64,000 nt of DNA. Source: Peptococcaceae bacterium BICA1-8. GTDB taxonomy: Bacteria; Bacillota; Peptococcia; Peptococcales; BICA1-8. The notes under the pieces are model-generated. The model made no database searches. It saw only the letters and a list, made by a program, of their open reading frames with translations, and was not told the DNA's origin. Location of the stretch: positions 839 through 64,838 of the forward strand of contig JUEF01000034.1 in NCBI GenBank assembly GCA_000802045.1, given 5' to 3'. Within the stretch, counting starts at the first letter, position 1. Every line of letters begins with the position of its first letter. Positions 9,142 to 63,321 of this stretch are shown piece after piece. A program made the position numbers and the translations under genes.

Positions 9142-9903
9142 TCAAAAAGAAAAAATCTGCTTAATTTTTCCTTTCATCTTTGAAATTGCTTTTTTATGAA
9201 TTTGCGATATCCGACCTTCTGTTAATTCTAAAATTCTGCTGATTTCCTTTACGGTTAATTCCTCATAATAAAAAAGAGTAATTACTAATTTCTCTTTTTC
9301 ATTTAAGTCAAGTAGAGCCTTTTCTAAATGCATCTTAATTTCGTCCTTTTCAATACTCTCAATAGGATCAGGGCTAGCATTATCAGGTAAAAAATCACTC
9401 AAAGTAAAGAAATCACCTTCGCCCTGATCTATTGGCTGTTCTAAAGATATTATTGATAAGTTACCTACAATCTGAAGTTGTTTCTCCAAATCTGCTTTAC
9501 TTATTCCCATTAATTCAGCCACTTCATAATCGGAAGCACTTCTACCTAGTTTTTGTTCTAGTAAAAAATAGGCTTTTTCAATTTCTTTAGCTTTTCTTCT
9601 TAAGGATTGCGGAGCCCAATCCATCTTTCTTAAACCATCGATAATTGCTCCTCTTACTCTTAAAACTGCGTAGCCTTCAAAGCTATTGTTTTGCTTAGGA
9701 TCATATTTATTTATTGCATCAATAAGCCCAAAAGAACCATAAGATAAAAGGTCGTCAAAATCCACACTACCCGGTAAACCGTAATATATTCTTTGAGCGC
9801 AATACTTTATTAGAGGGGCATAGGATAATATTAAACGCTCCCTATTTTCGCCGCTGGGATTATTAAAGAATTGCTGCCACAGTTCTTTTCTGTCATCCAT
9901 CAC
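9142..9903 (-). CDS. sigD: flagellar sigma factor, sigma-28 / SigD (FliA/WhiG family)
   Basis: 253 aa with region 2 (YAPLIKYCAQRI..., LLSYGSFGLIDAINKYDP) and region 4.2 HTH (LTVKEISRILELTEGRISQIHKKA). Last regulatory gene of the fla/che operon, as in Bacillus. Confidence 0.9.
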   Translation of the reverse strand: MMDDRKELWQQFFNNPSGENRERLILSYAPLIKYCAQRIYYGLPGSVDFDDLLSYGSFGLIDAINKYDPKQNNSFEGYAVLRVRGAIIDGLRKMDWAPQSLRRKAKEIEKAYFLLEQKLGRSASDYEVAELMGISKADLEKQLQIVGNLSIISLEQPIDQGEGDFFTLSDFLPDNASPDPIESIEKDEIKMHLEKALLDLNEKEKLVITLFYYEELTVKEISRILELTEGRISQIHKKAISKMKGKIKQIFSF

Positions 9904-49380: not shown

Positions 49381-50910
49381 CTAATCCCAAATCTTCCTGT
49401 CTAAAGACCTATACTGAATAGCCTCAGCTATGTGTTGGATATCAATTTGTTCTTTTCCCTCCAAATCTGCAATTGTTCGGGCAACTTTTATAATCCGATC
49501 ATGTGCTCGTGCAGTAAGTCCCAATTTATCAAATGCTTGTTTTAAAAGGTTTTTGCTTTCATTCTTTAAAGAACAGAACTTTCTAACGTCCTGTGTCTTC
49601 ATCTCAGAATTGGTAAAAATACTTGTATTATTAAATCTTTCCAGTTGAATTTGCCTAGCTCTTTCTACCCTTAGGCGAATTGTAGCACTTTCTTCCTCTA
49701 AGACTTCTGACTGTAATTCCTGAAATTCGAGTCTTGGAATCTCTAGGTGCAAATCTATTCTATCTAAAAGGGGTCCCGAGACCTTATTTCGATATTTCTG
49801 AGCCATATGTGGAGTGCATGTGCATTCTTTAATTGTATCACCATAATACCCACATGGACAGGGGTTCATTGCTGAAACCAAAAGAAATTTAGCAGGATAT
49901 GTTAGTTGGGCTGCAACACGCGAAACAGTAACCTTACCTTCTTCTAAAGGCTGTCGTAATGCTTCTAGGATATCCTTAGGGAACTCAGGAAATTCATCCA
50001 TAAATAAAACCCCATGATAACTAAGGCTTATCTCACCTGGAGTAGGTATCCTTCCACCTCCAATAATGCTTGCCTGGGAAGCACTGTGATGAGGTGCTCG
50101 GAAAGGTCGCTGATTAATTACCGGCTGTTGAGAGGGCAATAAACCAGAAATACTGTATATTTTTGTTATATCTAGGCATTCCTTAAAGGTTAATGTTGGC
50201 ATAATACCAGGAAGACATCGAGCCAGTAGAGTTTTTCCGGAACCTGGTGAACCTACCATTAGAACATTGTGATTACCAGCAGCTGAAATTTCTAAAGCTC
50301 TCTTGGCCTCTGCCTGACCTTTAACATCTCTAAAATCATAATCTAGAAAGGTCTCCTGCTGAAATAAATCCTCTAACTTTGGTGCTTGAACAGGCTTAGT
50401 TTGCTTAGGGTAAATAAGAAAATCAACTACATCCTTTAAATACTCAAAGCAATAGGTGGGGGTACCCCCTAATGCACCTTCGAGACCATTTTCCATAGGT
50501 ACAATTAGGTTATATTCACTTTTAGCCAGATGCAAAGAAATAGGTAAAACTCCATTTACCTTGCGCAGCCTGCCGTCTAAACCTAATTCTCCTACAGCCA
50601 TAATGTTATTTAATTTTTCAATTTCTAACTGATTTGTCGCAGCTAAAATAGCAAGTGCAATTGGTAAATCAAAGCTGGGGCCTTCTTTTTTGAGATGAGC
50701 CGGAGCCAAATTTACGACAATCCTCCTAGGTGGAAAGTCAAAACCTGAATTCCTTATAGCGGTTCTAACCCTTTCCTTGCTTTCTTTAACTGCGGTATCC
50801 GGAAGTCCTACTATATCCCAAGCCGGAAGCCCGCCTGCTGCATCAACTTCAATTTCAATCTCAAAAACTGATAAGCCCATAAGAGTAGAGCTTTTTACAT
50901 TTGCAAGCAT
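49381..50910 (-). CDS. comM: Mg-chelatase-like AAA+ ATPase YifB/ComM
   Basis: 509 aa with an N-terminal Lon-like domain (GLPAWDIVGLPDTAVKESKERV), Walker A GSPGSGKT, Walker B VLFMDEF and a C-terminal Mg-chelatase domain. Confidence 0.94.
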   Translation of the reverse strand: MLANVKSSTLMGLSVFEIEIEVDAAGGLPAWDIVGLPDTAVKESKERVRTAIRNSGFDFPPRRIVVNLAPAHLKKEGPSFDLPIALAILAATNQLEIEKLNNIMAVGELGLDGRLRKVNGVLPISLHLAKSEYNLIVPMENGLEGALGGTPTYCFEYLKDVVDFLIYPKQTKPVQAPKLEDLFQQETFLDYDFRDVKGQAEAKRALEISAAGNHNVLMVGSPGSGKTLLARCLPGIMPTLTFKECLDITKIYSISGLLPSQQPVINQRPFRAPHHSASQASIIGGGRIPTPGEISLSYHGVLFMDEFPEFPKDILEALRQPLEEGKVTVSRVAAQLTYPAKFLLVSAMNPCPCGYYGDTIKECTCTPHMAQKYRNKVSGPLLDRIDLHLEIPRLEFQELQSEVLEEESATIRLRVERARQIQLERFNNTSIFTNSEMKTQDVRKFCSLKNESKNLLKQAFDKLGLTARAHDRIIKVARTIADLEGKEQIDIQHIAEAIQYRSLDRKIWD

Positions 50911-50985
50911 GATATCCTCCGATAAAAAAATTGTAATATAATATATTACAATTTTACAGATATCGGCAAATATCCTTCTTTTTTA
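50822..50985. repeat. direct repeat copy A: comM codons 1-30, the ATG and the promoter block (attL-like)
   Basis: 50822-50910 matches 61890-61978 at 87/89 nt (80 consecutive identities). 50960-50985 is identical to 62027-62052. The centre (50911-50959) has diverged. Confidence 0.9.
50919..50985 (-). promoter_or_regulatory. sigma-D (sigma-28)-like promoter plus long imperfect palindrome in the comM leader
   Basis: Minus strand reads TAAA (50985-50982), a 14-nt spacer, then GCCGATAT (50967-50960). Then comes the palindrome CCGATA...ATTGTAATAT-ATT-ATATTACAAT-TTTTTTT-ATCGG, running into the SD GGAGG. Confidence 0.4.
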
Positions 50986-51189
50986 AGAATATTAATAAAT
51001 TACGTGATAATATACAGGTAATGCATACGCGTTAAATAGATTTTATTAGAACTGAGTCTATAATAAACATTATTCCAAAGTCACTAAATTTCCATGCAAG
51101 ATAAGAACTGGTCTGCCCCCCAATAAGTATACAAAAGTCTCTAATAATAATCAAAGAGTTATCACTAGACGTATTTGGGATAAAATAAG

Positions 51190-51368
51190 AAAGAAAATAT
51201 GAGCGAAGTTTTGCAGATGGCATGGAACCGCATGGACTTCGCTATCGTAGGTTAAATTTTGGAAGATAAAATATCCAAAAATAGGCGACAATGACGGCAT
51301 GTCAGAATATGAAAAAGATCGCAAATCATCTAGCTAAGGTAAGCTAGGAAGGTTTGCGACCTTTTTTT
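51190..51368 (+). ncRNA. candidate structured small RNA at the island's left end
   Basis: Weak promoter TTGGGA-17 nt-TATGAG (51175-51203). Hairpins AGCGAAGT/ACTTCGCT (51202-51209 / 51236-51243) and TTTTGGA/TCCAAAA (51257-51263 / 51274-51280), then a strong terminator. No convincing ORF (only 18-codon peptides). Confidence 0.25.
51319..51368 (+). terminator. rho-independent terminator (works in both directions)
   Basis: Nested stems TCGCAAA/TTTGCGA and CTAGCT/AGCTAG followed by TTTTTTT (51362-51368). The minus-strand version is followed by TTTTTC. Confidence 0.6.
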
Positions 51369-51410
51369 GTTACTATATTTTCGAATAATACTAAAAATAG
51401 TAACTTTTTT
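51369..51410 (+). terminator. second, back-to-back terminator hairpin
   Basis: GTTACTAT...ATAGTAAC stem (51369-51376 / 51397-51404) followed by TTTTTT. Confidence 0.5.
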
Positions 51411-51602
51411 ATTAGCTCCAAAATAAGCGTTTAAAATAAACGGGGTTTTTTCTACAATCTGAAGTATTATTTTCCCTTATTACATTTTCTAAAATTCAAT
51501 TCATTGGTATTTCCAAGACCAGACCCTCTCTTAATCCCGTATGTTATCCCTACCATTTACAATAAACTGGAAACTCCCTGGATTTTGAGAGAATTTTATA
51601 TA

Positions 51603-52967
51603 TCAAGCACTTATTTTTTCTGAATATTGAGGTAAATAATTCTTTGCAATACCATATTTCATCATTAGGTAATAAGATAGTCCAGCGGGAATTAAGCTAA
51701 TGTACCAGGAAAGTTGAACCTCAATTGCACCAAAAATAGCACCAATAACTATGGCAATAATGCCTGCCCAGTTGACCGATTTATATGGTCCATTTACATC
51801 ATACAAAACATTAAGGTCTAGCTGTTGTTTTCTAAAGAAATAATAGTCGACAACCAACACTGCAAAAATTGGGCCTAGAAAAACAGAGTATATTTGAATA
51901 AATAAGAAAAACCCCCCTGCTGTTGCAATTTTCCATGGGAATGTTAAAAATGCAAGTAAGCCAGTGATAACCGATCCTTTTTTCCAATCTATCCCAAATA
52001 AATCCATCATAACATACGTTGGAGGGACAACGTTTAACATAATATTAGTTGTAATTTGTGCGAGTACAACGAAAAAGAGGGCAGCGACAAGAACAAGCTT
52101 ATTAGGAAGTAGTTCAACAAATAAGTGAATAGGATCCCATTGACCAGTGACCCCCGCTGCAAGTAGCCCAATTACAGCCATAAATAAGGTAGTAGGAAGA
52201 GTTCCTACTATGTGAAGGATAAACATTAGTTTAGTGGTGCTGGATTTATTAAATTCCCTTGTATAGTCACTGATATTTAACATTAATGTAGTATAAATTC
52301 CGATAAATGCTGTAGTACCTCCCCAGAAAGCCAATCCCCAGGTTCCTGGTATGTTGATTATCTTTTCCTGTACTTGTGATCCATAGGCTGCATAAATTAT
52401 ATAAAGCATCCAGCATAACGAAATCATAATTATAACAGCACCAATATTTTCTAACCATTTGATTCCTTTAAACCCAAGTATTGACAGTAGGATCTGGAAT
52501 AGTTGGAATGTAACAAACCAGAACATAGGGCTATCAAAACTAAACAATTCGACAGAAATAGCATTTAGTGCCAATCCGCCAACCCAGGTCTGCACACCAT
52601 ACCAAAATATCGCTGGAACAGCCCTTATTACTCCGGGTAATTTTGAACCTTGAATTCCAAAGGCCGACCTTGCCTGTATGATAAAAGGGATACCATATTT
52701 ATGACCCGCTTGACCATTTAAGGTAAAACAGAAAGATACAATAGTCATTGAAACAATCATACATACAAAGGCTTGGAGGAGATTAAGCTTTCCTACGGGG
52801 GGGACTAAACTCGCACCCAGCATAAAGTATCCAATAAAAACACAACCACCAATCCAGGCAAACAAATATGATAAATTACCCATTATCCTATTTTCTTGGG
52901 GAAGTAAACTTTCCTCACCAAAACCCTTTTCTTCTACAACCGCTTGTACAGTTAACTTTTCTTCCAT
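51603..52967 (-). CDS. NCS1 family nucleobase/hydantoin/allantoin:cation symporter
   Basis: 454 aa, ~12 TM segments. The N-terminal region (NLSYLFAWIGGCVFIGYFMLGA) and overall pattern match NCS1 (Mhp1/PucI-like) permeases. Confidence 0.9.
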   Translation of the reverse strand: MEEKLTVQAVVEEKGFGEESLLPQENRIMGNLSYLFAWIGGCVFIGYFMLGASLVPPVGKLNLLQAFVCMIVSMTIVSFCFTLNGQAGHKYGIPFIIQARSAFGIQGSKLPGVIRAVPAIFWYGVQTWVGGLALNAISVELFSFDSPMFWFVTFQLFQILLSILGFKGIKWLENIGAVIIMISLCWMLYIIYAAYGSQVQEKIINIPGTWGLAFWGGTTAFIGIYTTLMLNISDYTREFNKSSTTKLMFILHIVGTLPTTLFMAVIGLLAAGVTGQWDPIHLFVELLPNKLVLVAALFFVVLAQITTNIMLNVVPPTYVMMDLFGIDWKKGSVITGLLAFLTFPWKIATAGGFFLFIQIYSVFLGPIFAVLVVDYYFFRKQQLDLNVLYDVNGPYKSVNWAGIIAIVIGAIFGAIEVQLSWYISLIPAGLSYYLMMKYGIAKNYLPQYSEKISA

Positions 52968-53035
52968 TTATTTTCCTCCTTTTTCTTGTTTTTCCTAGCT
53001 TTTTACAGGCCGGGAAAATAATTATTTGTCTTATT

Positions 53036-54430
53036 TTATAATCCGGAATAGGCAGTTCCATAAGGTTCACCCTTAATAAAAGACCCCTGTCCTAATTCTC
53101 CTAAAAATATTCCTTTTTCAGCCACAAGTTTACCCCTTAAAAAGACCTTATCAGCACGCCCTATTTGTTCCATGCCTTCATAAGAAGAGAAGTCAACTCC
53201 CTGTAAGCTGTTTTCAACTGCAATTCTCCCTTTCCAAGCTGGGTCAAACAATACAAAGTCAGCATCCGCACCAACTCCAATATGCCCCTTTCTTGGGAAT
53301 ATCCCATTAAATTTTGCAGGAGCTGTTGCAAAAACATCAACTAGCCTTTGACGGGTAATTCTTCCTTTTTCTACGCCATATGTCCAGAGAATGGCTAGGC
53401 GGTTCTCAACTCCTGGCGCTCCATTGGGTATTTTCGTAAAATCATAGTACCCTATATGCTTTTGCTCTTTCCAGTTAAATCCACAATGGTCAGATCCAAC
53501 AACTTGCAACCAACCCTTTTGTACAGCCTGCCACATAGCTTCAAGATGTTCAGGAGTTCGTAATGCAGGGGAGCATACATATTTAGCCCCTTCAAAATCT
53601 GGCTTTGCAAGGTTATCAACTGTCAAAACCATATAATGAGGACATGTTTCACCATAGATGGGAAGGCCCTTGGCAAATGCATCACGAATTGCCTCCATTG
53701 CCCCTATGCAGCTTACATGAACCACAAATAAAGGTGCTCCGGCCGCTTCAGCTAAGGTAATGGCACGGGATGTACATTCTGTTTCCACAATAGGAGGCCT
53801 GGAAACTGCATGATATTTAGGCTCCAATTGACCAGCTTCTACACATTGTTTTTGTAAAACATCAATTATATCACCATTTTCTGCATGAACCATCATGGTA
53901 ACTCCTGCTTTTTTTGCTGCCTGAAGACCTCTAAAAATTACACCATCATCACACATAAAAGGTGTGCCTTTATACGCCATGAACATCTTTAAAGTTGGTA
54001 TGCCAATCTCAGGAAGCTTAGGTATCTCCTCAAAAAGTTCATTAGTCACATCCATTACCATCCCGTGGAAACTGTAGTCGACCATAGCCTTACCTTTAGC
54101 CTGTTCCTCAATATGCTTCGCAACTGATTCTCTTAGGCTCATCCCTTTAGGCTGAGGAACAAAATCTACTATTGTGGTTGTACCACCTACAATTGCAGCA
54201 TTGGTAGTTTCAAATCCCCTTGTATATGTACCTCCGAAAGGCAGTGCAAAATGGGTATGTTGATCTATTCCACCAGGAAGTACATACATCCCCGCGGCAT
54301 CCACAATCTCCCTGGCCCTCCCGTCCAATCCTTCTCCAATTGCAATAATTTTTTCTCCTTCAACCAGAATATCAGCTTTATACTCATCCAAAGAAGTCAC
54401 AATAATTCCATTTTTAATCAATAAACTCAT
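53036..54430 (-). CDS. D-hydantoinase / dihydropyrimidinase (cyclic amidohydrolase)
   Basis: 464 aa. It aligns in my reading end to end with Bacillus-type D-hydantoinase. Matching motifs: GGIDQHTHF, KMFMAYK (carbamylated Lys), VHAENGD, GSDHC, FTKIPNGAPGVE and DADFVLFDP. Confidence 0.92.
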   Translation of the reverse strand: MSLLIKNGIIVTSLDEYKADILVEGEKIIAIGEGLDGRAREIVDAAGMYVLPGGIDQHTHFALPFGGTYTRGFETTNAAIVGGTTTIVDFVPQPKGMSLRESVAKHIEEQAKGKAMVDYSFHGMVMDVTNELFEEIPKLPEIGIPTLKMFMAYKGTPFMCDDGVIFRGLQAAKKAGVTMMVHAENGDIIDVLQKQCVEAGQLEPKYHAVSRPPIVETECTSRAITLAEAAGAPLFVVHVSCIGAMEAIRDAFAKGLPIYGETCPHYMVLTVDNLAKPDFEGAKYVCSPALRTPEHLEAMWQAVQKGWLQVVGSDHCGFNWKEQKHIGYYDFTKIPNGAPGVENRLAILWTYGVEKGRITRQRLVDVFATAPAKFNGIFPRKGHIGVGADADFVLFDPAWKGRIAVENSLQGVDFSSYEGMEQIGRADKVFLRGKLVAEKGIFLGELGQGSFIKGEPYGTAYSGL

Positions 54431-54477
54431 GCTTTTCCTCCTTTAAATTTATTAAAATAAAAAAAATTTCACCTCCT

Positions 54478-55728
54478 CTAAGTTTTTTTGGTTAAGCTGG
54501 AAGTAAGTTTATATACCACATTAAGCAATAGTTCACAACCAGCCTTAATATCTTCATAACTTGTTAATTCTTCAGGGACATGACTCCTGCCCCCAATACT
54601 GGGCACGAATATCATTCCGACATTGGTAATACCGCCAAATAAACAGGCATCATGCCCAGCACCGCTGTTCATTTTTTTATAAGGAAGTCCTTTTTCTATT
54701 GCAGTTTCTTCAATTAAATTTACTAACTCGTTTGATAAAATAATAGGATTCGATTCGCCTAATAATTTCATAGATGTACTTAAGTTGAATTTCTTTGAGA
54801 TTTCATTAAGCTTTTTCTCAACCTCATTGAGTATAATTCTTATCCCTTCCGGGTTTGTATCTCTAACATCAAGAGTAAAATTTATTTTTCCGGGAATGAC
54901 ATTAGGGACATTTGGATGACAAATAATTTTACCAACAGTAGCAACTGTTGACGGATAAGCCGTTCTAGTTTTACTATTAATGGTAGTAATAACCTCTGAT
55001 GCTCCTACCAGAGCATCATTCCTCATAACCATAGGGGTAGCACCTGCATGATTTGGTACTCCTCTAATTTCAATTTCAAACCATTTAATACCAGCAATTG
55101 CTTCAACTATTCCTATTGGTTTTTTTTCACTTTCTAACACAACACTTTGTTCGATATGAAGCTCAATCATAGCCATAATATCCCCGGTTTTTATTAAGTA
55201 TTTCTGCGAACTATCAGGATCAAAACCAACTTCTTTTGCAACTTCATACATGGATAAGCCCATACTGTTTTTGATACTCTTAATTTCATCAATCCCGTAT
55301 TTTCCTGTCAATACTTTACTTCCTGCCATAGTTGATCCAAAATTTGACCCCTCTTCTTCTACAAAAATAATCAGTTCTATAGGAATATCATTTTTTATAT
55401 TGTTTTCTTTGAAAACTCTAATTACCTCAAGGGATCCTACTACTCCCAAAACACCGTCAAAAATACCTCCGTGAAGCACTGTATCAATATGGGAACCAAT
55501 TAGAACTGCAGGTGCATCCTTCATACTGCCTTCCAATCGAGCACGAATATTTCCTACCCCGTCAATGCTAGTAGTAAGTCCTAGTCTGTTTATCTCCTCA
55601 ATGAGGTAATTTCTTGCCTTTGAATCTTCTGGGCTGTATGAAAATCTAGTACAACCTTGTCCTGGTGTTGCATTGAATTCAGCAATTTTTTCAATATCTC
55701 TTTTTACTCGGGATATGTTAATCTCCAT
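54478..55728 (-). CDS. M20-family N-carbamoyl-amino-acid / beta-ureidopropionate / allantoate amidohydrolase
   Basis: 416 aa with GSHIDTV, FVEEEGSNFG and HAGATPM motifs, typical of the AmaB/AllC/hydantoin-utilisation-protein-C subgroup of peptidase M20. Confidence 0.88.
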   Translation of the reverse strand: MEINISRVKRDIEKIAEFNATPGQGCTRFSYSPEDSKARNYLIEEINRLGLTTSIDGVGNIRARLEGSMKDAPAVLIGSHIDTVLHGGIFDGVLGVVGSLEVIRVFKENNIKNDIPIELIIFVEEEGSNFGSTMAGSKVLTGKYGIDEIKSIKNSMGLSMYEVAKEVGFDPDSSQKYLIKTGDIMAMIELHIEQSVVLESEKKPIGIVEAIAGIKWFEIEIRGVPNHAGATPMVMRNDALVGASEVITTINSKTRTAYPSTVATVGKIICHPNVPNVIPGKINFTLDVRDTNPEGIRIILNEVEKKLNEISKKFNLSTSMKLLGESNPIILSNELVNLIEETAIEKGLPYKKMNSGAGHDACLFGGITNVGMIFVPSIGGRSHVPEELTSYEDIKAGCELLLNVVYKLTSSLTKKT

Positions 55729-55945
55729 TAATAATTCACCCTTTTTCTTATTTTTAAAAAGTATTATCCTTCATTTATTTATTGATCTTATACCTTTTAG
55801 TAAGGATGCATTTGCGTTTTTATATTGCTCTAATTCATGGGACTAGCCGCCACTTTACAGATAATCTTTCTTTCTATTCTCATTAATTTACGTCTTTCGA
55901 GATTTTGATTATTTATTTTTACCTCCTTTTCCTTAGAAAGACATG

Positions 55946-56260
55946 TTACTCCTTCCAAACTGGTTTAGATTCTATAATTAAAATTGACGCAGTATCAGTT
56001 GTTTCTGGCTTATACAATATTCCTTTAGGAATAAATACACCTTCATTTTCTTCCAGTTGTATTACATCATTCTCCATAATAATAACTAGGTTACCTCTAA
56101 GAAGTAGGACAAATCTATCAGACTGTTCACTGGCAAACCAACAGGAGTCACTGTTAATGCGGCAAAAGCTTATTAAACAACCATTAAATTCAGAAAATTC
56201 AAATAGGTAAGTCTTGTCTAAGTCCCTTGATATATTATTAAAATTCATTTTCCTTAACAA
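55946..56260 (-). CDS. small single-domain cupin protein
   Basis: 104 aa (TTG start 10 nt after AGGAGGAGG). Beta-barrel pattern LLLRGNLVIIMENDVIQLEENEGVFIPKGILYKPE. First gene behind the sigma-54 promoter. Confidence 0.65.
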   Translation of the reverse strand: MLRKMNFNNISRDLDKTYLFEFSEFNGCLISFCRINSDSCWFASEQSDRFVLLLRGNLVIIMENDVIQLEENEGVFIPKGILYKPETTDTASILIIESKPVWKE

Positions 56261-56303
56261 TACTTCCTATCCTCCTCCTATAGAATTCTACAATATATTA
56301 ACT

Positions 56304-56319
56304 TGCAAAAATCATACCT
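56304..56319 (-). promoter_or_regulatory. sigma-54 (-24/-12) promoter of the cupin-carbamoylase-hydantoinase-permease operon
   Basis: Minus strand reads AGGTAT, a 5-nt spacer, then TTGCA, so GG-N10-GC is preserved. Lies 44 nt upstream of the cupin start. Confidence 0.55.
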
Positions 56320-56372
56320 GCTAATAATGTAGGCAAAATATTGATATACTTCTATTTAGCCATTTATTTTAG

Positions 56373-56405
56373 TGCATTTCTGCACACAATTTTGCATTAT
56401 TGCAC
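56373..56405. promoter_or_regulatory. candidate enhancer (UAS): two TGCATTNNTGCAC boxes
   Basis: TGCATTTCTGCAC (56373-56385) and TGCATTATTGCAC (56393-56405), 20 nt apart start to start. They lie 54-86 nt upstream of the -24 element. Confidence 0.35.
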
Positions 56406-56473
56406 TAATCTTTATATTGTAGTTTTCCTCCATTCCGTAGCCATTTTAAATGGATTAAATCATAACAAGAGAA

Positions 56474-56496
56474 AAGTTCCCTTTATTGGGGAACTT
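56474..56496 (-). terminator. terminator of the sigma-54 activator gene
   Basis: 8-bp stem AAGTTCCC / GGGAACTT followed on the minus strand by TTCTCTTGTT. Confidence 0.55.
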
Positions 56497-56523
56497 CTAA
56501 AAAACTTATCTCTTATACTACAA

Positions 56524-58605
56524 TTAATATACATCAGGTTTAGTGCTAAAGTATTTATTTGCTTTCCTAAGTATTGTCGTCCTATGAACACCTAATACTT
56601 CCGCCACTTTATTTATATTTGAATACTTTTGATATGCCATCATTATTAGGTCCTTTTCCAACCTTTCAACAGCTAAGTCCAAAGGTAAAATATTATTTAT
56701 CTGTAAAATATCCCTGGCAGTTTCCACTTCCTCCTGAAGTTCTCCTGGCAGCTGGTTAAGGTTTATGGTTTCACCTTCTATTGTTACTACCAGTCTCTCT
56801 ATCATATTTTCCAACTGTCTTACATTCCCCGGCCAAGAATATTGGATTAACCTTTCAATTGCTTCAGAACTAAAATGTTTTCTTAACAAATATTTTTCAC
56901 CAAACTTTGACAAATAGTAATTTACCAGGATTGGTATCTCATCCTTCCGCTCTCTTAGTGGAGGTACAATAATCGGAATAACATTTAAGCGATAATATAA
57001 ATCTTCTCTAAACTCGCCCTTATTTACCATTTTTATTAAATTTCTGTGAGTAGCTGCAATAATTCTTATATCCACTTCAATTGGTTTTATACCCCCAACA
57101 GGATAAAACTTTTTTTCCTGTATTAATTGCAATACCTTTACCTGAAGTGCTAAGGGAAGATCCCCTATCTCATCCAAAAACAACGTCCCTTTATTAGCCT
57201 GCAATACTAAACCAACTTTCCCTTCTTTTGAAGCCCCAGTAAATGCTCCCCTAACATATCCAAAAAGTTCAGACTCCAGTAAGTTTTCTGGAATAGCTCC
57301 ACAATTTATTTTTATAAAAGAATTATCTTTTCGTGCTGAAGAATCTTGAATAAACCTGGCAACCACTTCTTTTCCAGAACCGGATTCGCCGGTTATTAAT
57401 ACTGTAGTATCTACCATTGCCACCCTAGATGCCAGGTCTACAACCTTTGCCATCTTTGAACTTCTGGCAATTATTCTTTCCTCCGCCTTTTCCCTCCGCA
57501 ATTCACCTAATTCTTTTTGGTATTTTTTTAGAAGTTCTTCCGTTTCTTCCAGTTGAAGTTTCAACCTGCTTAATTCGGTAATATCATGAGAGAAGTTTAT
57601 TATCCTGTATAAGTTCCCATCATTATCAAAAATAGGTACACCGGTTACAAAAAGCCGTCTTCCGCCTTTCGTATCCTGAATTAGTGTCTGTCTTTTTTTT
57701 GTCTGCAAAACCAGGTTTGTCACTGATTTTGATAAAACACTAGTTTTTTCTAAGTCTTTTACATTTCTGCCAATGAACTCCTCCATCTTTATTCCAAACA
57801 TCTTTTCCAGGGATGAGCTGGCACGCAGAGCAATTCCATTTTGATCAATTACCGTAATTAAATCGTACGAATTATCCATAATAAACTCTAATTCTTGATT
57901 TAATGCTATTTCCTCGTCCAGTTTTTTTGATACTCTTTCCAAGTCGTTAATATTCTGGAATACTCCAATTGCACCCATTACTTTTCCGTCTTTTACTATT
58001 GAGGTTCTATTCGTAACAATAATATTACCATTTATTAGCTGTTTTTCTCCTGTTACACTCTCACCGGTTCTGCTTACTACTAACAATTGGGAGGTCGGAA
58101 TTATATCATATACTAACTTACCAACAGCATCACTTTTCTTAATTCCGCTTATTTTTGCAGATGCCTCATTAAAGATTGTTATATAACCCTCATCATCTAT
58201 TGCGATTATACCGTTATGAATTGAATCTAAAATAATATTTTGTTCAGTCAGTACGTGACCTAAAAGGCCGATACTGTTTCTGTTTATACCGCTAAGATAA
58301 CCGTCGTTTTCAATAATGATATATCTCTTCTCATTTCCTGTCTCAACTAGGCTTTTGCCTGTTACAAAAGTAAAATCTTTGTGAATAAAAGGTAAAATGA
58401 GACTGTCAAATTTTATATCTGAAGATGCTATCGCAGCTAACATATCTTCTAAAACCAGAACTCCTTCTACCTTTTTAGCATTATTACTTACTACGGGACA
58501 GTAATTAAGTTCACTTTTCGAGAACAGTGAGATAGCATCCATAATAGTATTATTCAATTTAATTAGCCCTTGAAAAGGCTTTGCAATTTCCCTATACAAT
58601 ATCAA
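56524..58605 (-). CDS. sigma-54-dependent transcriptional activator (CBS + PAS sensor, AAA+, Fis-type HTH)
   Basis: 693 aa. Has an N-terminal CBS-like segment and PAS repeats. AAA+ motifs are GESGSGKE and VRGAFTGA (GAFTGA loop), plus LFLDEIGDL. C-terminal HTH is INKVAEVLGVHRTTILRKANKY. TTG start 6 nt after GAGGTG. Confidence 0.93.
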   Translation of the reverse strand: MILYREIAKPFQGLIKLNNTIMDAISLFSKSELNYCPVVSNNAKKVEGVLVLEDMLAAIASSDIKFDSLILPFIHKDFTFVTGKSLVETGNEKRYIIIENDGYLSGINRNSIGLLGHVLTEQNIILDSIHNGIIAIDDEGYITIFNEASAKISGIKKSDAVGKLVYDIIPTSQLLVVSRTGESVTGEKQLINGNIIVTNRTSIVKDGKVMGAIGVFQNINDLERVSKKLDEEIALNQELEFIMDNSYDLITVIDQNGIALRASSSLEKMFGIKMEEFIGRNVKDLEKTSVLSKSVTNLVLQTKKRQTLIQDTKGGRRLFVTGVPIFDNDGNLYRIINFSHDITELSRLKLQLEETEELLKKYQKELGELRREKAEERIIARSSKMAKVVDLASRVAMVDTTVLITGESGSGKEVVARFIQDSSARKDNSFIKINCGAIPENLLESELFGYVRGAFTGASKEGKVGLVLQANKGTLFLDEIGDLPLALQVKVLQLIQEKKFYPVGGIKPIEVDIRIIAATHRNLIKMVNKGEFREDLYYRLNVIPIIVPPLRERKDEIPILVNYYLSKFGEKYLLRKHFSSEAIERLIQYSWPGNVRQLENMIERLVVTIEGETINLNQLPGELQEEVETARDILQINNILPLDLAVERLEKDLIMMAYQKYSNINKVAEVLGVHRTTILRKANKYFSTKPDVY

Positions 58606-58722
58606 TGGAATTCACCTCTTAGAATTTTAAATATAAAAGGAATTCTCTCTGTTTAATAAAAACCCTTTTATCTTAATATTTTTTTTTGAAAATTCTAATT
58701 ATTTAAACTAGTTATTTCTCGT

Positions 58723-58738
58723 TGGCATTATTCTTGCA
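58723..58738 (+). promoter_or_regulatory. sigma-54 (-24/-12) promoter of the C_GCAxxG_C_C gene
   Basis: TGGCAT-TATTC-TTGCA, a near-perfect match to TGGCAC-N5-TTGCW. Lies 40 nt upstream of the ATG at 58778 and is divergent from the activator gene. Confidence 0.72.
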
Positions 58739-58777
58739 ACATAATAGAACATATTAAGATATTTGGAGGAATTAGTA

Positions 58778-59287
58778 ATGGACATTGACTCCCTTCAACA
58801 AAATACAAAAGAACTCGCTGTGAAAAACTTTAAAGAGAGAATGAGCTGCTCAGAAGCTGTACTGTCAGCAGTAATTTCAGCCGGTTTAATAAGTTATCCA
58901 CGGGACATAGTTGCTCTGGCAACAGGATTTGGAGGCGGTATTGGTCTAGCGGGCTTTAACTGTGGTGCTCTTTCTGGTGCCGTCATGGCAGTTAGTGGAG
59001 TTCACGGCCGAAGAAACCCTATCACAGGGACGCCGGATGAAAGAACCCAACTTACTTATGGCAAAATATACCGCATATTTAATTCCCTCGTACAGGATTT
59101 CCAAGAAGAGCTTGGCTCTGTTGACTGTATGGAGTTGTGTAAAAACTATGATTTCAATACAAAGGAAAGATCAGAGTATTGTGCAGGCATTGTTGAATAT
59201 GCCACAACACTAGCAGTTTCCTACATAGCTCTTGGAGAATTCTACAGTACAAAATCCTATGGAAAAAATATGGCGGGTTTAAAATGA
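58778..59287 (+). CDS. C_GCAxxG_C_C family (putative redox-active) protein
   Basis: 169 aa counted from the ATG at 58778 (GGAGG 8 nt upstream). Contains MSCSEAVLSA and FNCGALSGAVMA, the family's C-GAxxG signature, plus C-terminal Cys residues. Confidence 0.85.
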   Translation: MDIDSLQQNTKELAVKNFKERMSCSEAVLSAVISAGLISYPRDIVALATGFGGGIGLAGFNCGALSGAVMAVSGVHGRRNPITGTPDERTQLTYGKIYRIFNSLVQDFQEELGSVDCMELCKNYDFNTKERSEYCAGIVEYATTLAVSYIALGEFYSTKSYGKNMAGLK

Positions 59288-59411
59288 TATTAGCATAATC
59301 AAAATTTTAAACTTCGGGGTTCCGGGGCAGAGCCTCCATAAATATCACTAGCTCCATTGGCATTCTTTCTACCCCATTCTTTCTTGCTTTCTTTGGTTTA
59401 AGCAATAATTA

Positions 59412-59439
59412 TTGATATATGTTCAAAACAGTATATAAT
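59412..59439 (+). promoter_or_regulatory. sigma-A-like promoter upstream of the glutamate-synthase-like gene
   Basis: TTGATA, a 16-nt spacer, then TATAAT. Lies ~95 nt upstream of the ATG at 59536. Confidence 0.45.
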
Positions 59440-59535
59440 AAAGTTGAATGGGGCATATGACCATAACTATAAGAGATACTGGTCTTTAATAAAAATGGGG
59501 ATATCTGTTTTTAATTATTATGCGGGGGTGATATT

Positions 59536-61089
59536 ATGTCTTATAGTCCATCATTAGGGAGTTCCATAACCAATACTAGAATGAGAACTCCGGAACATAT
59601 ATCTGATTTTTCAGGTATGTGTGCAGTATGTACAGCTAATTGTACAGGCCTTTGTGAAATAGGCCTATCTGCTATCCGTGGATCAGAAGCAATTTATCCT
59701 TATGCAATAGATATAAACCAATTTGCTTCTGAGAAAGAGTACCCATTGGATTTTTCTCATTTTAACATCAATGGGAGGGTATTTGGCGCATTAGGATGCT
59801 CTGAAGATGCTAATATGACAACTTTCCCTAAAGTAAGTATCAATACATCCTTTGGTATAAACAATAAAATCAATCTGAAAGCACCTATCCTTCTGCCGGC
59901 TATGGCTAAATTAAACTGGAAGGATTACTATGCTGGAGCAGCTTTAGCAGGTGTATTAGTGGTAATTGGTGAAGATGTAGTAGTAAAAGATAAGGGTTTA
60001 GTTTTAGAAAATGGTAAAGTTAGTAACTCACCTCTTATTGCAGAAATGTTAGCTTCATTTAAAGAGTATTATAATGGGTACGGGGATATTATTATTCAGG
60101 CTAATTATGATGATGAAAACCTGGGAGTATTAGATTATGCTATCACTAAATTGGAAGTAAAATCGGTAGAGCTTAAATTTGGGCAAGCGGCTAAAGGAAT
60201 TCAGGGGATGGGAAGAGTAAAAAATATTGAAGACGCACTAAAGTTTCAAGAAATGGGTTATTTAATTTATCCTGATCCCTCTGACCCAGTTGTAGCTGAA
60301 AACTACAAAAATGGTATAGGTCAAATATTTGAAAAAATAGGTAAATTACCAATGTGGAATGAGGACATATTGATTAAACGAGTCGCTGAGCTACGAGAGT
60401 TAGGGGCTGAACATATCTGCTTCAAAACTGGGCCTTTTGATCCGAAAGATCTGGTTAAGATTCTTAAAATTGCGTCAAAAGCTGGTGTGGATTTAGTTAC
60501 ATTTGATGGTGCTGGAGGAGGGTCTGGAAATAGTCCAACTAAAATGATGAATGAATGGGGTATTCCTACAGTTTATATGGAAAGTATGCTGTACGATATA
60601 TTAAAAAAGTTTAAAAAGAAAAATTATTCTATGCCTCAAGTTGCAATAGCTGGTGGGTTTGCTATGGAAGATCAAGTATTTAAGGGATTAGCATTGGGTG
60701 CTCCATATGTAAATCTCATAGGAATAGGTAGGGCTGCTATGGCAGCAGCATTAGTTGGCAAGCAAATAGGAGAATTAATAAATAAAGGAACAGTACCTAA
60801 AGAGTACCAGAGATTCGGCTCTACTTTAGAAGAAATATTTGCTGATATTAGGGAGCTTAAAGGTTTATATGGTAGTGATGCAAAAGATATTTCCCCTGGG
60901 GCAATAGGGGTATATTCATTTATAAATAGGATTTCTGCAGGACTACAACAATTCATGGCTCTCAACCGTAAGTTCGCTCTAAAGTATATTGATAGGAGTG
61001 ATATATTCCCTTTAACAGAAATAGCAGCTAAGATTACAGGGCTAGAGACATATACCGATATAGTAAACAGAGAATTAAAGAATCCCTAA
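59536..61089 (+). CDS. FMN-binding glutamate-synthase-domain-2-like oxidoreductase with an N-terminal Cys cluster
   Basis: 517 aa. The TIM-barrel GltB-FMN-type core contains VELKFGQAAKG, TFDGAGGGSGNSP and GGFAMEDQVFKGLALGA. An N-terminal CAVCTANCTGLCEIG motif (C-x2-C-x3-C-x3-C) is a presumptive Fe-S site. Confidence 0.88.
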   Translation: MSYSPSLGSSITNTRMRTPEHISDFSGMCAVCTANCTGLCEIGLSAIRGSEAIYPYAIDINQFASEKEYPLDFSHFNINGRVFGALGCSEDANMTTFPKVSINTSFGINNKINLKAPILLPAMAKLNWKDYYAGAALAGVLVVIGEDVVVKDKGLVLENGKVSNSPLIAEMLASFKEYYNGYGDIIIQANYDDENLGVLDYAITKLEVKSVELKFGQAAKGIQGMGRVKNIEDALKFQEMGYLIYPDPSDPVVAENYKNGIGQIFEKIGKLPMWNEDILIKRVAELRELGAEHICFKTGPFDPKDLVKILKIASKAGVDLVTFDGAGGGSGNSPTKMMNEWGIPTVYMESMLYDILKKFKKKNYSMPQVAIAGGFAMEDQVFKGLALGAPYVNLIGIGRAAMAAALVGKQIGELINKGTVPKEYQRFGSTLEEIFADIRELKGLYGSDAKDISPGAIGVYSFINRISAGLQQFMALNRKFALKYIDRSDIFPLTEIAAKITGLETYTDIVNRELKNP

Positions 61090-61099
61090 TTTAATCTTA

Positions 61100-61143
61100 C
61101 AAGGGAAGCCGATATCTACTAGATTAGATATCGGCTTCCCTTG
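61100..61143. terminator. 19-bp perfect palindrome 11 nt after the stop of the glutamate-synthase-like gene
   Basis: CAAGGGAAGCCGATATCTA - CTAGAT - TAGATATCGGCTTCCCTTG. No U-tract on either strand. Both arms contain GCCGATATC. Confidence 0.55.
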
Positions 61144-61481
61144 ATAAACCCCTGTAGCAATTTAAAGGTTTCGTTCTAAAGTAAGTAAAAAAAATCTAGC
61201 GTATAAAAAACAAGAGGCATCTAGATACATACTACATCTTGAATACCCCTTATCGTTGTTTTGGTGCGGTAGAGAAGACTTGCTTCAAAAAGATTAGACC
61301 GTTTTAGCCACCTTAATGTTGGTTAAGTTTGCCTATTTTTTTGCCAGCATCTACTAAATTTTTGATAGCATTTACATATGTTTTTTGGTATAGCAAATAA
61401 GGACAGAAGAAATGTTTCAGGTCAAATTATTGTATTTTGTACTAAAAAGACAAAGTTATTGAACTCTATTTTGCTCCTTAA

Positions 61482-61889
61482 TTATATATTATTCTTATTT
61501 ATGAAAGCTGAAGTTATTAGCCTCCTTATAACTTCAGCTTTACTGAATTTTAAAGAGGACTTGTATTTATTTAGGTCATTTGCTATTTGCTCTAGCTGCG
61601 CTAACTGTTTTTTAGAAAACTTAACATTCTTTCTTTTATCACCTACATTATCTTCAATATTCAAATTTTCTATTTGCTTTACTACCTTGTTATCAAAAAC
61701 TAAATCAGTTATCTTACGAATTATTTCTGCTTCACTAGAACCTTGCTTTTGTTTTAGGTGTTGTAAATATTCATTTTGGACTTCTGAAATAACAAAACCA
61801 TATTCTTTTAAACAACCATCCTGCTTCTTATTCTGTATATAGAAGTAATGCACATAATCTGGTTGGCGAACTTTCCTACCTTCTCCCAT
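61482..61889 (-). CDS. tandem ribbon-helix-helix (RHH/CopG-like) protein at the island's right border
   Basis: 135 aa with two RHH-like units. Unit 1: YGFVISEVQNEYLQHLKQKQGSSEAEIIRKITDLV. Unit 2: KNVKFSKKQLAQLEQIANDLN...FSKAEVIRRLITSA. The ATG lies exactly at the repeat junction. The antisense 154-aa ORF looks like junk. Confidence 0.6.
   Translation of the reverse strand: MGEGRKVRQPDYVHYFYIQNKKQDGCLKEYGFVISEVQNEYLQHLKQKQGSSEAEIIRKITDLVFDNKVVKQIENLNIEDNVGDKRKNVKFSKKQLAQLEQIANDLNKYKSSLKFSKAEVIRRLITSAFINKNNI
61836..61886. repeat. repeat X: 5' coding end of the RHH gene, duplicated at 62070-62119
   Basis: 46/51 identity with 62070-62119. The inner 33 nt (61854-61886 vs 62087-62119) differ at one position. 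Confidence 0.85.
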
Positions 61890-61978
61890 GCCGGCAACCC
61901 GCCTGCTGCATCAACTTCAATTTCAATCTCAAAAACTGATAAGCCCATAAGAGTAGAGCTTTTTACATTTGCAAGCAT
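61890..61978 (-). pseudogene. comM: orphan comM 5' fragment (codons 1-30)
   Basis: Encodes MLANVKSSTLMGLSVFEIEIEVDAAGGLPAW, identical to ComM residues 1-30. It then diverges (EKVGKFANQIMCITSIYRIRSRMVV, stop). Confidence 0.85.
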
Positions 61979-62052
61979 GTTTTCCTCCGATATTTGTAAA
62001 ATGTAATACTACTTATAATTTTACAAATATCGGCAAATATCCTTCTTTTTTA
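61890..62052. repeat. direct repeat copy B: displaced comM 5' end plus promoter (attR-like)
   Basis: See copy A. Contains TAAA-N14-GCCGATAT and a perfect 16-bp palindrome CCGATATTTGTAAAAT / ATTTTACAAATATCGG (61987-62002 / 62018-62033), followed by the SD GGAGG and the ATG at 61978. Confidence 0.9.
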
Positions 62053-62069
62053 GCAGATTTATTAATGTT

Positions 62070-62119
62070 TATATAAAAGTATAAACATAATCTGGTTGGC
62101 GAATTTTCCTACCTTCTCC
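62070..62119 (-). pseudogene. remnant of a second RHH-gene 5' end (older junction scar)
   Basis: Translates as GEGRKIRQPDYVYTFI then stop, compared with MGEGRKVRQPDYVHYFYIQ in the intact gene. It has no start codon and is truncated by the copy-B promoter block. Confidence 0.6.
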
Positions 62120-62225
62120 ACTCTTACTCCACTTATTGCATCAATTTAGAATTAAATATATTGAGATGGACCTATCTGGTTAGTCCTTATAAAACCTTAA
62201 AATGAAGTATTATAAGTATTCATTT

Positions 62226-62259
62226 AAAAAAGGTCATTGCTTAGAAAAGCAATGACCTT
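62226..62259 (-). terminator. rho-independent terminator
   Basis: Perfect 13-bp stem AAGGTCATTGCTT / AAGCAATGACCTT with a 4-nt loop, followed on the minus strand by TTTTAAATG. Lies ~300 nt downstream of the GntR gene. Confidence 0.6.
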
Positions 62260-62555
62260 AAAAAGGGGGTATGGAGTTTTAATTTAACTAAGATCCTGAT
62301 CTGAGTATAATTAAATTATTCTAGAAACAAATTTTTTTATAATAATAAGTATTAACTTCTTCCCTCATGTTTACATCTTGCCAATGCACTACTCTAAATA
62401 TGGCTACATTAGGTAATACTCCCTAAATCTATCTGACCATTAGATAAGATACATAAGAGGTAGATTCAACATTTTCTATAACTTGTTAATTACTTGAGAA
62501 AGAACGCCAGCAAATACATACCTGTACCTCCCAGCGATTTATATAGTTATAGAAA

Positions 62556-63281
62556 TTAAACCCTTAAAATAGCTTCAATATATTTATCTGTTTGGACTAT
62601 AAAGTCACTATTATCTAAACCTTCCAATTTAGCATATTCTTGCATTGCTCTTTTCCCAGCAGTTAAAATGTGTCTTTCTAAAACTAATTTACAAGATAAT
62701 ACATCTCCTTTAATGATATATTCTAGCAACTCACTATGTTCTTTAATAGAAATTGTCCTATTATAATCTTTTTTAAGTGAAAATGACCTGAAAATTTTCA
62801 TTTTAACATCTAATGGCTCATAAATTTGCTTTAAAATATCTAATCCTGAAAAATTAATTAAAGAGGTATGAAATTCTCTATTAAGCTCTTGTATGATTCG
62901 AACTTCATTTTCTTTAGATGCTTTAACACTTTTATCAATAATTTTTTCAATTTTACTTACTATTTCATTTTTATTGTCTTTTATTGCTACAAATGAAGCT
63001 GCAAGACTTTCAGCAGAAGCACGAATAAAATAGACTTGACATATGTCCTCTAATGAAGGCTTATACACTGTTACAATTCCATTTTCACTTTTTAGTAATC
63101 CTTCACTACATAATATTCGAGCTGCTTCCCTGACTGGAGTCCTACTAATTCCCAACCACTCTGCTAATTGTTGATCAGTAAGTCTTTCCCCTGGTTTAAG
63201 ATCACCTTTTGTAATATCGTCTTTTAATTGATAATAGGCTTGCAAATACAAAGGTTCTACTTTAATCAGTTTACCTGTCAT
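62556..63281 (-). CDS. GntR family transcriptional regulator (FadR/FCD subfamily)
   Basis: N-terminal wHTH (LKPGERLTDQQLAEWLGISRTPVREAARIL) and a helical FCD-like C-terminus. I chose the ATG at 63281, 7 nt after GGAGG (241 aa). Confidence 0.88.
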   Translation of the reverse strand: MTGKLIKVEPLYLQAYYQLKDDITKGDLKPGERLTDQQLAEWLGISRTPVREAARILCSEGLLKSENGIVTVYKPSLEDICQVYFIRASAESLAASFVAIKDNKNEIVSKIEKIIDKSVKASKENEVRIIQELNREFHTSLINFSGLDILKQIYEPLDVKMKIFRSFSLKKDYNRTISIKEHSELLEYIIKGDVLSCKLVLERHILTAGKRAMQEYAKLEGLDNSDFIVQTDKYIEAILRV

Positions 63282-63321
63282 TAAGATTCCTCCATCAAGC
63301 GAAATATGAACTTGCACTTTA

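Follow-up and report, generated by a model that had tools for sequence, protein, structure and literature searches.

A probable sigma-54-controlled module for cyclic ureide uptake and hydrolysis in an anaerobic Peptococcaceae genome, beside a probably independently transcribed GltB-like gene

We analysed a 64-kb stretch of DNA (the window) from contig JUEF01000034.1 of Peptococcaceae bacterium BICA1-8, a metagenome-assembled genome (MAG) of an anaerobic member of the Peptococcaceae. Positions 51598-59314 of the window are probably a self-contained, horizontally mobile catabolic unit that is controlled by sigma-54 and degrades a cyclic ureide without ring reduction. The unit comprises a gene for a C_GCAxxG_C_C family protein, divergent from genes for a sigma-54 activator, a small cupin-like protein, an M20 amidase, a hydantoinase and an NCS1-family permease. 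The next gene encodes a protein resembling domain 2 of glutamate synthase (GltB-like), with a flavin mononucleotide (FMN) barrel and a probable iron–sulfur (Fe-S) site; it is best read as an independently transcribed neighbour. A preliminary description of this DNA had instead suggested that this Fe-S/FMN enzyme, perhaps with help from the C_GCAxxG_C_C protein, may provide the ring-reduction step that the module lacks, or some other redox reaction ahead of the hydantoinase. We now consider this proposal highly improbable.

In the proposed mechanism, the CBS/PAS region of the activator would presumably sense the substrate or a related signal, and the activator would open two divergent sigma-54 promoters, one for the cupin, M20, hydantoinase and NCS1 genes and one for the C_GCAxxG_C_C gene. 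The permease would import a cyclic ureide that can already be hydrolysed, the hydantoinase would open its ring to give an N-carbamoyl amino acid, and the M20 enzyme, judging by its family, would then remove the carbamoyl group as CO2 and NH3, leaving an amino acid.

Conservation of the module and its promoters

The module recurs outside the window. We searched metagenomes with the hydantoinase, which yielded 80 loci whose ORFs (open reading frames) were clustered, and with the activator, after which the contigs of its closest relatives were inspected; L-numbers denote the homologous loci and contigs, of which L167 and L168 come from the second search. First, the gene order on one metagenome contig, L167, matches that of the window, with the C_GCAxxG_C_C gene divergent from activator, cupin, M20, hydantoinase and NCS1 genes. 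The encoded proteins are 82% (C_GCAxxG_C_C), 83% (activator), 70% (cupin), 83% (M20), 91% (hydantoinase) and 91% (NCS1) identical to those of the window. DNA homology between the two covers 51598-59314 in three blocks and ends no more than 30 nt from the stop codons of the NCS1 and C_GCAxxG_C_C genes. L167 thus holds the entire module and no GltB-like gene, the homology stopping before the position of that gene. The divergent plus-strand pair of the preliminary description is thereby divided: its C_GCAxxG_C_C gene belongs to the unit, whereas its GltB-like gene falls outside the conserved block.

Second, the regulatory elements are conserved along with the genes. The activator (56524-58605, minus strand) is a sigma-54 enhancer-binding protein with a CBS-like N-terminal region, two PAS domains, an AAA+ domain whose GAFTGA motif is found in the translation, and a helix-turn-helix domain. 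It matches PF00158 (Sigma54_activat) at 231 bits as well as HTH_50 and HTH_8. The sigma-54 and PAS assignments made previously hold; the CBS domain narrowly misses its cutoff (23.7 bits against 24), and the orthologue that is 83% identical has a PF00571 record. The nearest NCBIfam model, PrdR, scores 469 bits, under its cutoff of 795. The window holds no second activator, no rpoN and no integrase.

Upstream of the C_GCAxxG_C_C gene lies a consensus sigma-54 promoter, TGGCATTATTCTTGCA (58723-58738, plus strand), 40 nt before the start codon; it is the single exact match to TGGCAY-N5-TTGCW within the 64 kb. The 18-nt block that contains it, TTGGCATTATTCTTGCAA, is identical in L167, where the flanking spacer has diverged and carries indels. 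A weaker -24/-12 promoter of the hydrolase operon, AGGTATGATTTTTGCA (56319-56304, minus strand), is the sole GG-N10-GC element in its intergenic region, and such elements precede the hydrolase operon in five contexts including the window (AGGTATGCTTTTTGCT in L093, AGGCACACTTTTTGCT in L095, TGGCACGGAAGTTGCT in L091 and AGGAATAATTCTTGCA in L167). Between this promoter and the activator gene, tandem palindromes of the form GTGCA-N4-TGCAC / TGCA-N4-TGCAC (56372-56405) are the sole matches to GTGCANNNNTGCAC with zero or one mismatch within the 64 kb and form a plausible enhancer to which the activator could bind. A terminator-like hairpin with a 10-bp stem and a T-run follows the activator gene (56498-56472, minus strand) and would separate the activator transcript from the operon. 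The hydrolase-operon promoter, the tandem palindromes and the stem of this hairpin are all kept in L167, and the DNA flanking the palindromes has diverged there.

Third, more distant versions preserve the core of the module. In L091, L093 and L095, an activator 43-47% identical to that of the window is followed by M20 and hydantoinase genes; the NCS1 gene lies downstream in L091 and in a divergent operon in L093 and L095. The divergent operon of L093 (2799-6941) encodes the NCS1 permease, a cytosine-deaminase-family amidohydrolase (NF006685, above cutoff) and rpoN, so that the module carries its own sigma factor gene there. L095 (2917-6911) has the same gene-cluster layout, the annotation having been made in L093, and in both loci a second sigma-54 promoter-like element, read from the sequence, faces the divergent operon. 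In L168 the module is rearranged, with genes for an aminotransferase, a 291-amino-acid ORF, a cupin, an NCS1 permease, a hydantoinase, EIIC-GAT, an M20 enzyme and Amidohydro_3 beside an activator that is 54% identical. Among the 74 other hydantoinase loci of the metagenome scan, 32 have an M20 homologue, whose median position is directly upstream on the same strand.

No oxidoreductase or reductase gene occurs in the modules of L091, L093, L095, L167 and L168 or in their immediate flanks. Because these homologous modules do without one, we take the conserved functional unit to be activator, (cupin), M20 amidase, hydantoinase and NCS1 permease, and the substrate probably enters the cell already hydrolysable. 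The sigma-54-controlled uptake and hydrolysis module that the preliminary description had recognized is therefore borne out by its recurrence in these five loci and by the conservation of its -24/-12 promoters.

The C_GCAxxG_C_C protein (169 amino acids; 58778-59287, plus strand) probably starts at the ATG at 58778, within an ORF that opens at a TTG at 58763. It scores 78.7 bits for PF09719 and 73.9 bits for TIGR01909, against a cutoff of 47.4. Its gene is divergent from the activator gene in both the window and L167, and homologues at 42-47% identity are sited outside hydantoinase modules; the protein thus appears to be a lineage-specific, sigma-54-driven member of the module. In another Peptococcaceae MAG (L172, 5279-9472), a homologue at 42% identity is encoded between genes for an M20 peptidase and a PAS/sigma-54 activator, so that the family is linked for a second time, if more loosely, to sigma-54 activators and M20 hydrolases.

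Predicted hydrolytic pathway and candidate substrates

Pfam and NCBIfam profile scans covered ten ORFs between 51603 and 63993. All seven ORFs of the preliminary description lie where it had placed them and belong to the families it had named, the cupin and the CBS domain with weak support, and both profile and PDB matches confirm the minus-strand series of cupin, M20, hydantoinase and NCS1 genes. The permease, hydantoinase and M20 genes form one predicted transcription unit on the minus strand, with co-transcription suggested by the gene spacing and by the lack of predicted terminators between the genes. Rfam gives no structured RNA or riboswitch match at E<=1 in 51000-62600.

The hydantoinase (53036-54430, minus strand), a D-hydantoinase/dihydropyrimidinase-type cyclic amidohydrolase expected to open the ring, scores 528.8 bits for TIGR02033 (cutoff 393.25), and its top PDB match is the D-hydantoinase 1K1D (474 bits). 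The alignment shows identical residues at all six of the 1K1D positions H58, H60, K150, H183, H239 and D315, which we take to be the ligands of the binuclear metal centre, K150 being carboxylated. In 1K1D the exocyclic substituent of the substrate is presumably surrounded by M63, L65, F152 and F159; the counterparts of these residues in the window enzyme, L, F, F and F, are all hydrophobic or aromatic.

The M20 amidase (54478-55728, minus strand), of the hydantoinase/carbamoylase family, exceeds the cutoffs of TIGR01879 (410.2 bits against 204) and NF006771 (479.4 against 399). It reaches no substrate-specific equivalog: ErtE scores 385 against 520, AllC 313.7 against 597.75, and all others fall under their cutoffs. 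Its top PDB match is the N-carbamoyl-L-amino acid hydrolase 3N5F (269 bits), ahead of the N-carbamoyl-beta-alanine amidohydrolase/beta-alanine synthase structures 8C46 (205 bits) and 1R3N (182 bits).

The last gene of the operon encodes the NCS1-family permease (51603-52967, minus strand; Transp_cyt_pur, 192.8 bits), the presumed importer of the cyclic ureide. Its sole PDB relatives are chains of the hydantoin transporter Mhp1 (E 1.7e-36), and beside the close L167 homologue (91%) it has one of 65% identity in L091. The first gene encodes a small cupin-like protein of 100-104 amino acids (55946-56260, minus strand) with a probable start at the ATG at 56248; the identical Logan contig carries it as an annotated 100-amino-acid gene. 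The 104-residue ORF is sub-threshold in Pfam (Cupin_2, E 0.011). In the PDB it matches 3D82 (E 6.5e-6), which is described as a 'Cupin 2' barrel protein, and the L168 counterpart (27% identity, E 1.4e-15) also has a weak Cupin_2 match. Of the family assignments made here, that of the cupin is the weakest.

Among possible substrates, a 5- or N-substituted hydantoin appears most likely and a 5,6-dihydropyrimidine comes second. The leaning towards hydantoins follows from the L-alpha-carbamoylase as nearest relative of the M20 enzyme, from the hydrophobic and aromatic residues at the presumed pocket positions and from Mhp1 as the sole PDB relative of the permease.

The second-ranked substrate would place the operon at steps 2 and 3 of reductive pyrimidine degradation, with dihydrouracil or dihydrothymine either imported or produced by a dehydrogenase of the PreTA/PydA type whose gene would lie elsewhere in the genome. 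We regard this as a serious alternative, although less likely than not. TIGR02033 bears the name of a dihydropyrimidinase equivalog, beta-alanine-type enzymes (8C46 and 1R3N) are among the relatives of the M20 amidase, a class-III aminotransferase of the gamma-aminobutyrate (GABA)/beta-amino-acid kind is an extra member of the L168 operon, and a cytosine-deaminase-family gene accompanies the module in L093, with the same layout in L095. On the other hand, the L-alpha-carbamoylase 3N5F is the better match to the amidase, and the pocket positions resemble those of D-hydantoinases. Nor do the Pfam and NCBIfam scans find a dihydropyrimidine dehydrogenase-type gene in the segment or its flanks, as the preliminary description had already stated, and such a gene is present in none of the six module contexts examined (the window, L091, L093, L095, L167 and L168).

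ATP-independent N-methylhydantoinases occur in anaerobes, and an ATP-independent route from creatinine would run from N-methylhydantoin through N-carbamoylsarcosine to sarcosine. At 17 metagenome loci, the gene directly before that of a hydantoinase homologue encodes an isochorismatase-family protein, matched best in the PDB by the N-carbamoylsarcosine amidohydrolase 1NBA (E 1.9e-59); five of these loci (L103, L107, L108, L109 and L137) have hydantoinases 54-56% identical to the window enzyme. L093, and by shared clustering L095 and L100, combine a hydantoinase with a cytosine/creatinine-deaminase-family amidohydrolase and no reductase, which fits creatinine better than cytosine. These gene pairs of hydantoinase and N-carbamoylsarcosine amidase suggest that an anaerobic ATP-independent N-methylhydantoin/creatinine route exists in the metagenome loci. 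The window, however, has neither a deaminase nor an isochorismatase-type amidase, its amidase being of the M20 family, and for the window itself this route is improbable.

Still less probable is that the genes form an allantoin/ureide unit, consisting of an allantoinase, an allantoate amidohydrolase, a cupin ureidoglycine aminohydrolase and an allantoin permease, or a fragment of a reductive urate cluster. NF006771 is indeed named 'allantoate amidohydrolase', the NCBIfam equivalogs closest to the permease are allantoin permeases, a cupin is present, and the urate-pathway enzyme HyuA falls in the hydantoinase family of the window enzyme (IPR011778). We nevertheless rejected the allantoin reading on profile scores: the hydantoinase reaches 261-272 bits for allantoinase models, far under their cutoffs, as against 529 for TIGR02033, and the scores for AllC and for the permease equivalogs are likewise far under cutoff. 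A bicupin has about 260 residues; the cupin of the window, at about 100, is not of that size. No family of the SsnA, XdhD, YgfK, YgeW or YgeX type occurs among the ten ORFs scanned.

The GltB-like gene and its neighbourhoods

The GltB-like protein (517 amino acids; 59536-61089, plus strand) matches Pfam Glu_synthase (PF01645) over residues 279-404 only (E 7.8e-11; profile positions 191-310 of 369). Nothing else in its 517 residues matches a domain, and the protein has no NCBIfam model match and no sequence relative in the PDB. The N-terminal cysteine cluster reported previously is present as CAVCTANCTGLC (CxxCxxxCxxxC); C29, C32 and C40 are invariant and C36 is conserved in at least 90% in relatives at 28-42% identity. 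An AlphaFold2 model has a mean pLDDT (predicted local distance difference test score) of 79, with most of the first 100 residues, including the cysteine motif, poorly predicted. Foldseek matches this model to FMN TIM barrels in the PDB at 12-17% identity: lactate monooxygenase, the FMN domain of glutamate synthase (1OFD, 1LLW), glycolate oxidase and type-2 isopentenyl diphosphate (IPP) isomerase, with dihydroorotate dehydrogenases lower in the list. The model and motif together suggest an FMN barrel that probably contains an Fe-S site.

The family is small, with 770 clusters at E<=1e-3 and 86 at E<=1e-30 among 1.84 billion representatives. The best 120 homologues are 72-100% identical, in groups labelled Peptococcales, Sedimentibacter, Tissierellia, Negativicutes and others. 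Distant relatives, from an Asgard archaeon and from a cluster with named members in Thermoleophilia, are stand-alone genes in unrelated contexts, one of them on a 2.8-kb contig. A Geobacter 'glutamate synthase-related protein' was rejected as an informative relative, since the literature lists its gene as gltB (GOGAT), part of an operon for glutamate synthase.

Does this protein supply a ring reductase to the module? The preliminary description had proposed its co-occurrence with hydantoinase clusters in other genomes as a check on that idea. We surveyed one genome per species and examined the best 80 of 330 genome matches (80 loci, 64-85% identity), comparing neighbourhoods of about 10 kb with the window proteins by ORF clustering, BLASTP and tblastn. 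At none of the 79 loci from other species did we find homologues of the NCS1 permease, the M20 amidase or the C_GCAxxG_C_C protein, and co-occurrence with hydantoinase clusters was not found, so that the idea fails the check set for it. A sigma-54 activator (38-40% identity) occurs at 4 of the 79 loci and starts about 3.5 to 8.7 kb downstream of the GltB-like gene. The gene also has a strong promoter of its own, a sigma-70-type TTGATA-16-TATAAT (59412-59439, plus strand) that lies outside the module, agrees at 11 of 12 positions and is the best such match in 51300-61600. A perfect 19-bp inverted repeat (61100-61143; 6-nt loop, 100% complementary, no T-run), 11 nt after its stop codon, is likely to mark the end of its transcript, or else a protein-binding site. 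Together with the modules that lack any reductase, these observations leave the proposed reductase role unsupported.

Several observations nevertheless weigh against our reading of the region. The GltB-like gene adjoins the module on the same strand, downstream of the C_GCAxxG_C_C sigma-54 promoter, and no terminator is predicted between the two genes, so that sigma-54-driven read-through into it is possible. When both promoter regions are compared, the GTGCA-N4-TGCAC enhancer is not found near the C_GCAxxG_C_C promoter, which could therefore be served by an activator encoded outside the window rather than, as we infer, by the adjacent one. The GltB-like gene also shares an 11-kb segment bounded by direct repeats with the module and may for this reason have arrived with it. 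These repeats (50806-50924 and 61874-61992, 119 nt, 93%; 50946-50998 and 62013-62065, 53 nt, 85%) duplicate the first ~35 codons of comM/yifB (49381-50910, minus strand), its ribosome-binding site and its upstream/promoter region. On both sides of the right-hand comM copy, which is a fragment of the gene, lies a 35-nt direct repeat (61852-61886 and 62085-62119, 97%). The arrangement looks like the scar of an element that integrated into the 5' end of comM, and the segment contains no integrase.

A further point in favour of a link comes from a Schnuerera MAG (L071), the sole case in the 79 loci, in which a hydantoinase relic lies 250 nt upstream of the GltB-like gene on the same strand. The relic is a 75-amino-acid ORF (9505-9753) in which 68 residues, corresponding to 319-386, are 62% identical to the window enzyme, and its adjacency keeps the probability of a link between the two families above zero. 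The fold, an FMN TIM barrel akin to that of glutamate synthase, with dihydroorotate dehydrogenases further down the Foldseek list, also speaks for the proposed reductase. Finally, the reductive urate pathway offers a precedent for swappable ring reductases that act before HyuA-type ring opening (10.1101/2025.05.19.654654).

The neighbourhoods of the orthologues point elsewhere. Recurrent neighbours, by Pfam, are DUF134, DUF5320, two Nitro_FeMo-Co (NifX-like) proteins, two MinD/CbiA ATPases with ferredoxin inserts and an Mrp/ParA ATPase; an ArsP_1-type permease, a radical SAM/SPASM protein and NifU_N occur occasionally. At least one partner of the DUF134/NifX-like/MinD-Mrp set is found within 6 kb at 34 of the 51 loci that have at least 3 kb on both flanks. 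In the closest relatives inspected, P0002 (90%) and P0005 (86%), the GltB-like gene stands among DUF134, Nitro_FeMo-Co and ParA/CbiA genes, and this high identity of the window protein to copies in such clusters, which argues against a new role as ring reductase, suggests that its function is unchanged. None of these partner genes is found in the 64-kb window by tblastn.

The same loci share a candidate operator. Aligned regions upstream of the GltB-like genes contain a 12-bp palindrome, TGACATATGTCA, that usually overlaps the -35 hexamer, often with a second copy after the -10. With at most one mismatch it is present in 27 of 50 upstream regions of GltB-like orthologues, compared with 0.04 in shuffles, and among loci L002-L086 it also precedes DUF5320, NifX-like and DUF134 genes. 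The window copy is degenerate (TGATATATGTTC, 3 mismatches, 59413-59424) and again lies over the -35 hexamer, with a CATATG-centred element at 59452-59462. These data point to a regulon that is separate from sigma-54 and apparently undescribed. DUF134 is a candidate for its regulator because a representative sequence is rich in cysteine and its own gene is preceded by TGACATATGTCA; from the look of the sequence, it may contain a helix-turn-helix. Elsewhere in the window, a one-mismatch copy of the palindrome, TGACATATGTCC (63037-63048), lies inside a GntR/FCD regulator gene (62556-63317), beside a truncated aldehyde:ferredoxin oxidoreductase gene; chance could account for this copy, 2.5 matches at up to two mismatches being expected in the window.

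We tentatively propose that the GltB-like protein serves as the catalytic component of a hitherto undescribed system of anaerobes with a redox or metallocofactor function: a small conserved CxxCxxxCxxxC family, co-regulated through TGACATATGTCA with the cysteine-rich putative regulator DUF134, DUF5320, NifX-like carriers and MinD/Mrp Fe-S ATPases, whose copy in the window has been displaced next to the hydantoinase island or is carried within it. That sigma-54 read-through has co-opted the protein as a new pyrimidine or hydantoin ring reductase is much less likely, and indeed very doubtful. Our literature search found nothing on DUF134 clusters, on the TGACATATGTCA palindrome or on this GltB-like subfamily. 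The family has no solved or characterised relative and 64-90% identity among close orthologues; by tying it through synteny and operator to DUF134, NifX-like and MinD-Mrp genes, the analysis makes an old puzzle of conserved neighbourhoods testable. Reading the module as free of a reductase and the GltB-like gene as a passenger also avoids a wrong annotation.

Comparison with known systems

The combination of a hydantoinase, a glutamate synthase-type protein and a C_GCAxxG_C_C protein was not found in the literature, and the main text of a published reconstruction of Clostridiales sigma-54 regulons mentions neither hydantoin or pyrimidine genes nor such a module. The unit would add a nitrogen-rich heterocycle to the targets of sigma-54 in anaerobic Firmicutes.

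For the GltB-like protein, the closest known structure type is the FMN domain of the glutamate synthase alpha subunit (PF01645; 1OFD, 1EA0), which it resembles in fold and in the partial profile match over residues 279-404. It differs in being a stand-alone protein of 517 residues that lacks the amidotransferase and C-terminal domains, in its N-terminal CxxCxxxCxxxC motif and in its identity of 12-17% to solved structures.

YgeV is a sigma-54 activator. Its gene belongs to the reductive urate/2,8-dioxopurine cluster of E. coli and C. difficile, together with XdhD, YgfK/UacX, SsnA, HyuA, YgeW/UacY, YgeY and YgeX, and the ring reductase of this pathway varies by lineage, being YgfK, UacX or an F420-dependent enzyme (10.1101/2025.05.19.654654). 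The window module is similar in that it would serve an anaerobic N-heterocycle pathway, its hydantoinase is of the HyuA family, and genes for an M20 hydrolase and a regulator lie alongside. The module is not a reductive urate cluster, however: the SsnA, XdhD, YgfK, YgeW and YgeX families are absent from its scanned ORFs; the 25 best NCBIfam matches listed for its M20 enzyme include no YgeY-family model; and the GltB-like protein, with PF01645 as its sole Pfam match, matches neither YgfK (IPR017701) nor UacX (PF01180).

Reductive pyrimidine catabolism proceeds through a PydA or PreT/PreA dehydrogenase, the dihydropyrimidinase PydB and the beta-ureidopropionase PydC. The window has a hydantoinase that meets TIGR02033 and a carbamoyl-amidohydrolase to follow it, but the gene for step 1 is in neither the window nor the homologous modules, and the amidase is an M20 enzyme closest to an alpha-carbamoylase. 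Because it has no dehydrogenase gene, the operon is not a canonical reductive pyrimidine operon.

The nearest known systems are the hyu operons. Those of Microbacterium liquefaciens and Arthrobacter aurescens encode HyuP (the NCS1 permease Mhp1), the hydantoinase HyuH, the M20 L-N-carbamoylase HyuC and the racemase HyuA. Like them, the window operon joins an NCS1 permease, a cyclic amidohydrolase and an M20 carbamoylase in one predicted unit for the same two-step hydrolysis. Unlike them, it has no hydantoin racemase gene; a racemase-like cluster (c5), so labelled from the look of its sequences and without an NCBIfam match, is present in 15 homologous loci (for example L102, which is hyu-like) and has no member in the window. 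The window adds instead the sigma-54 activator, the small cupin and the sigma-54-driven C_GCAxxG_C_C gene. The hydrolytic chemistry of hydantoinase, carbamoylase and NCS1 permease is known; what is new is the regulatory wiring, in which a dedicated CBS/PAS sigma-54 activator, encoded between two conserved sigma-54 promoters, is predicted to control a unit that also includes the cupin and the C_GCAxxG_C_C protein.

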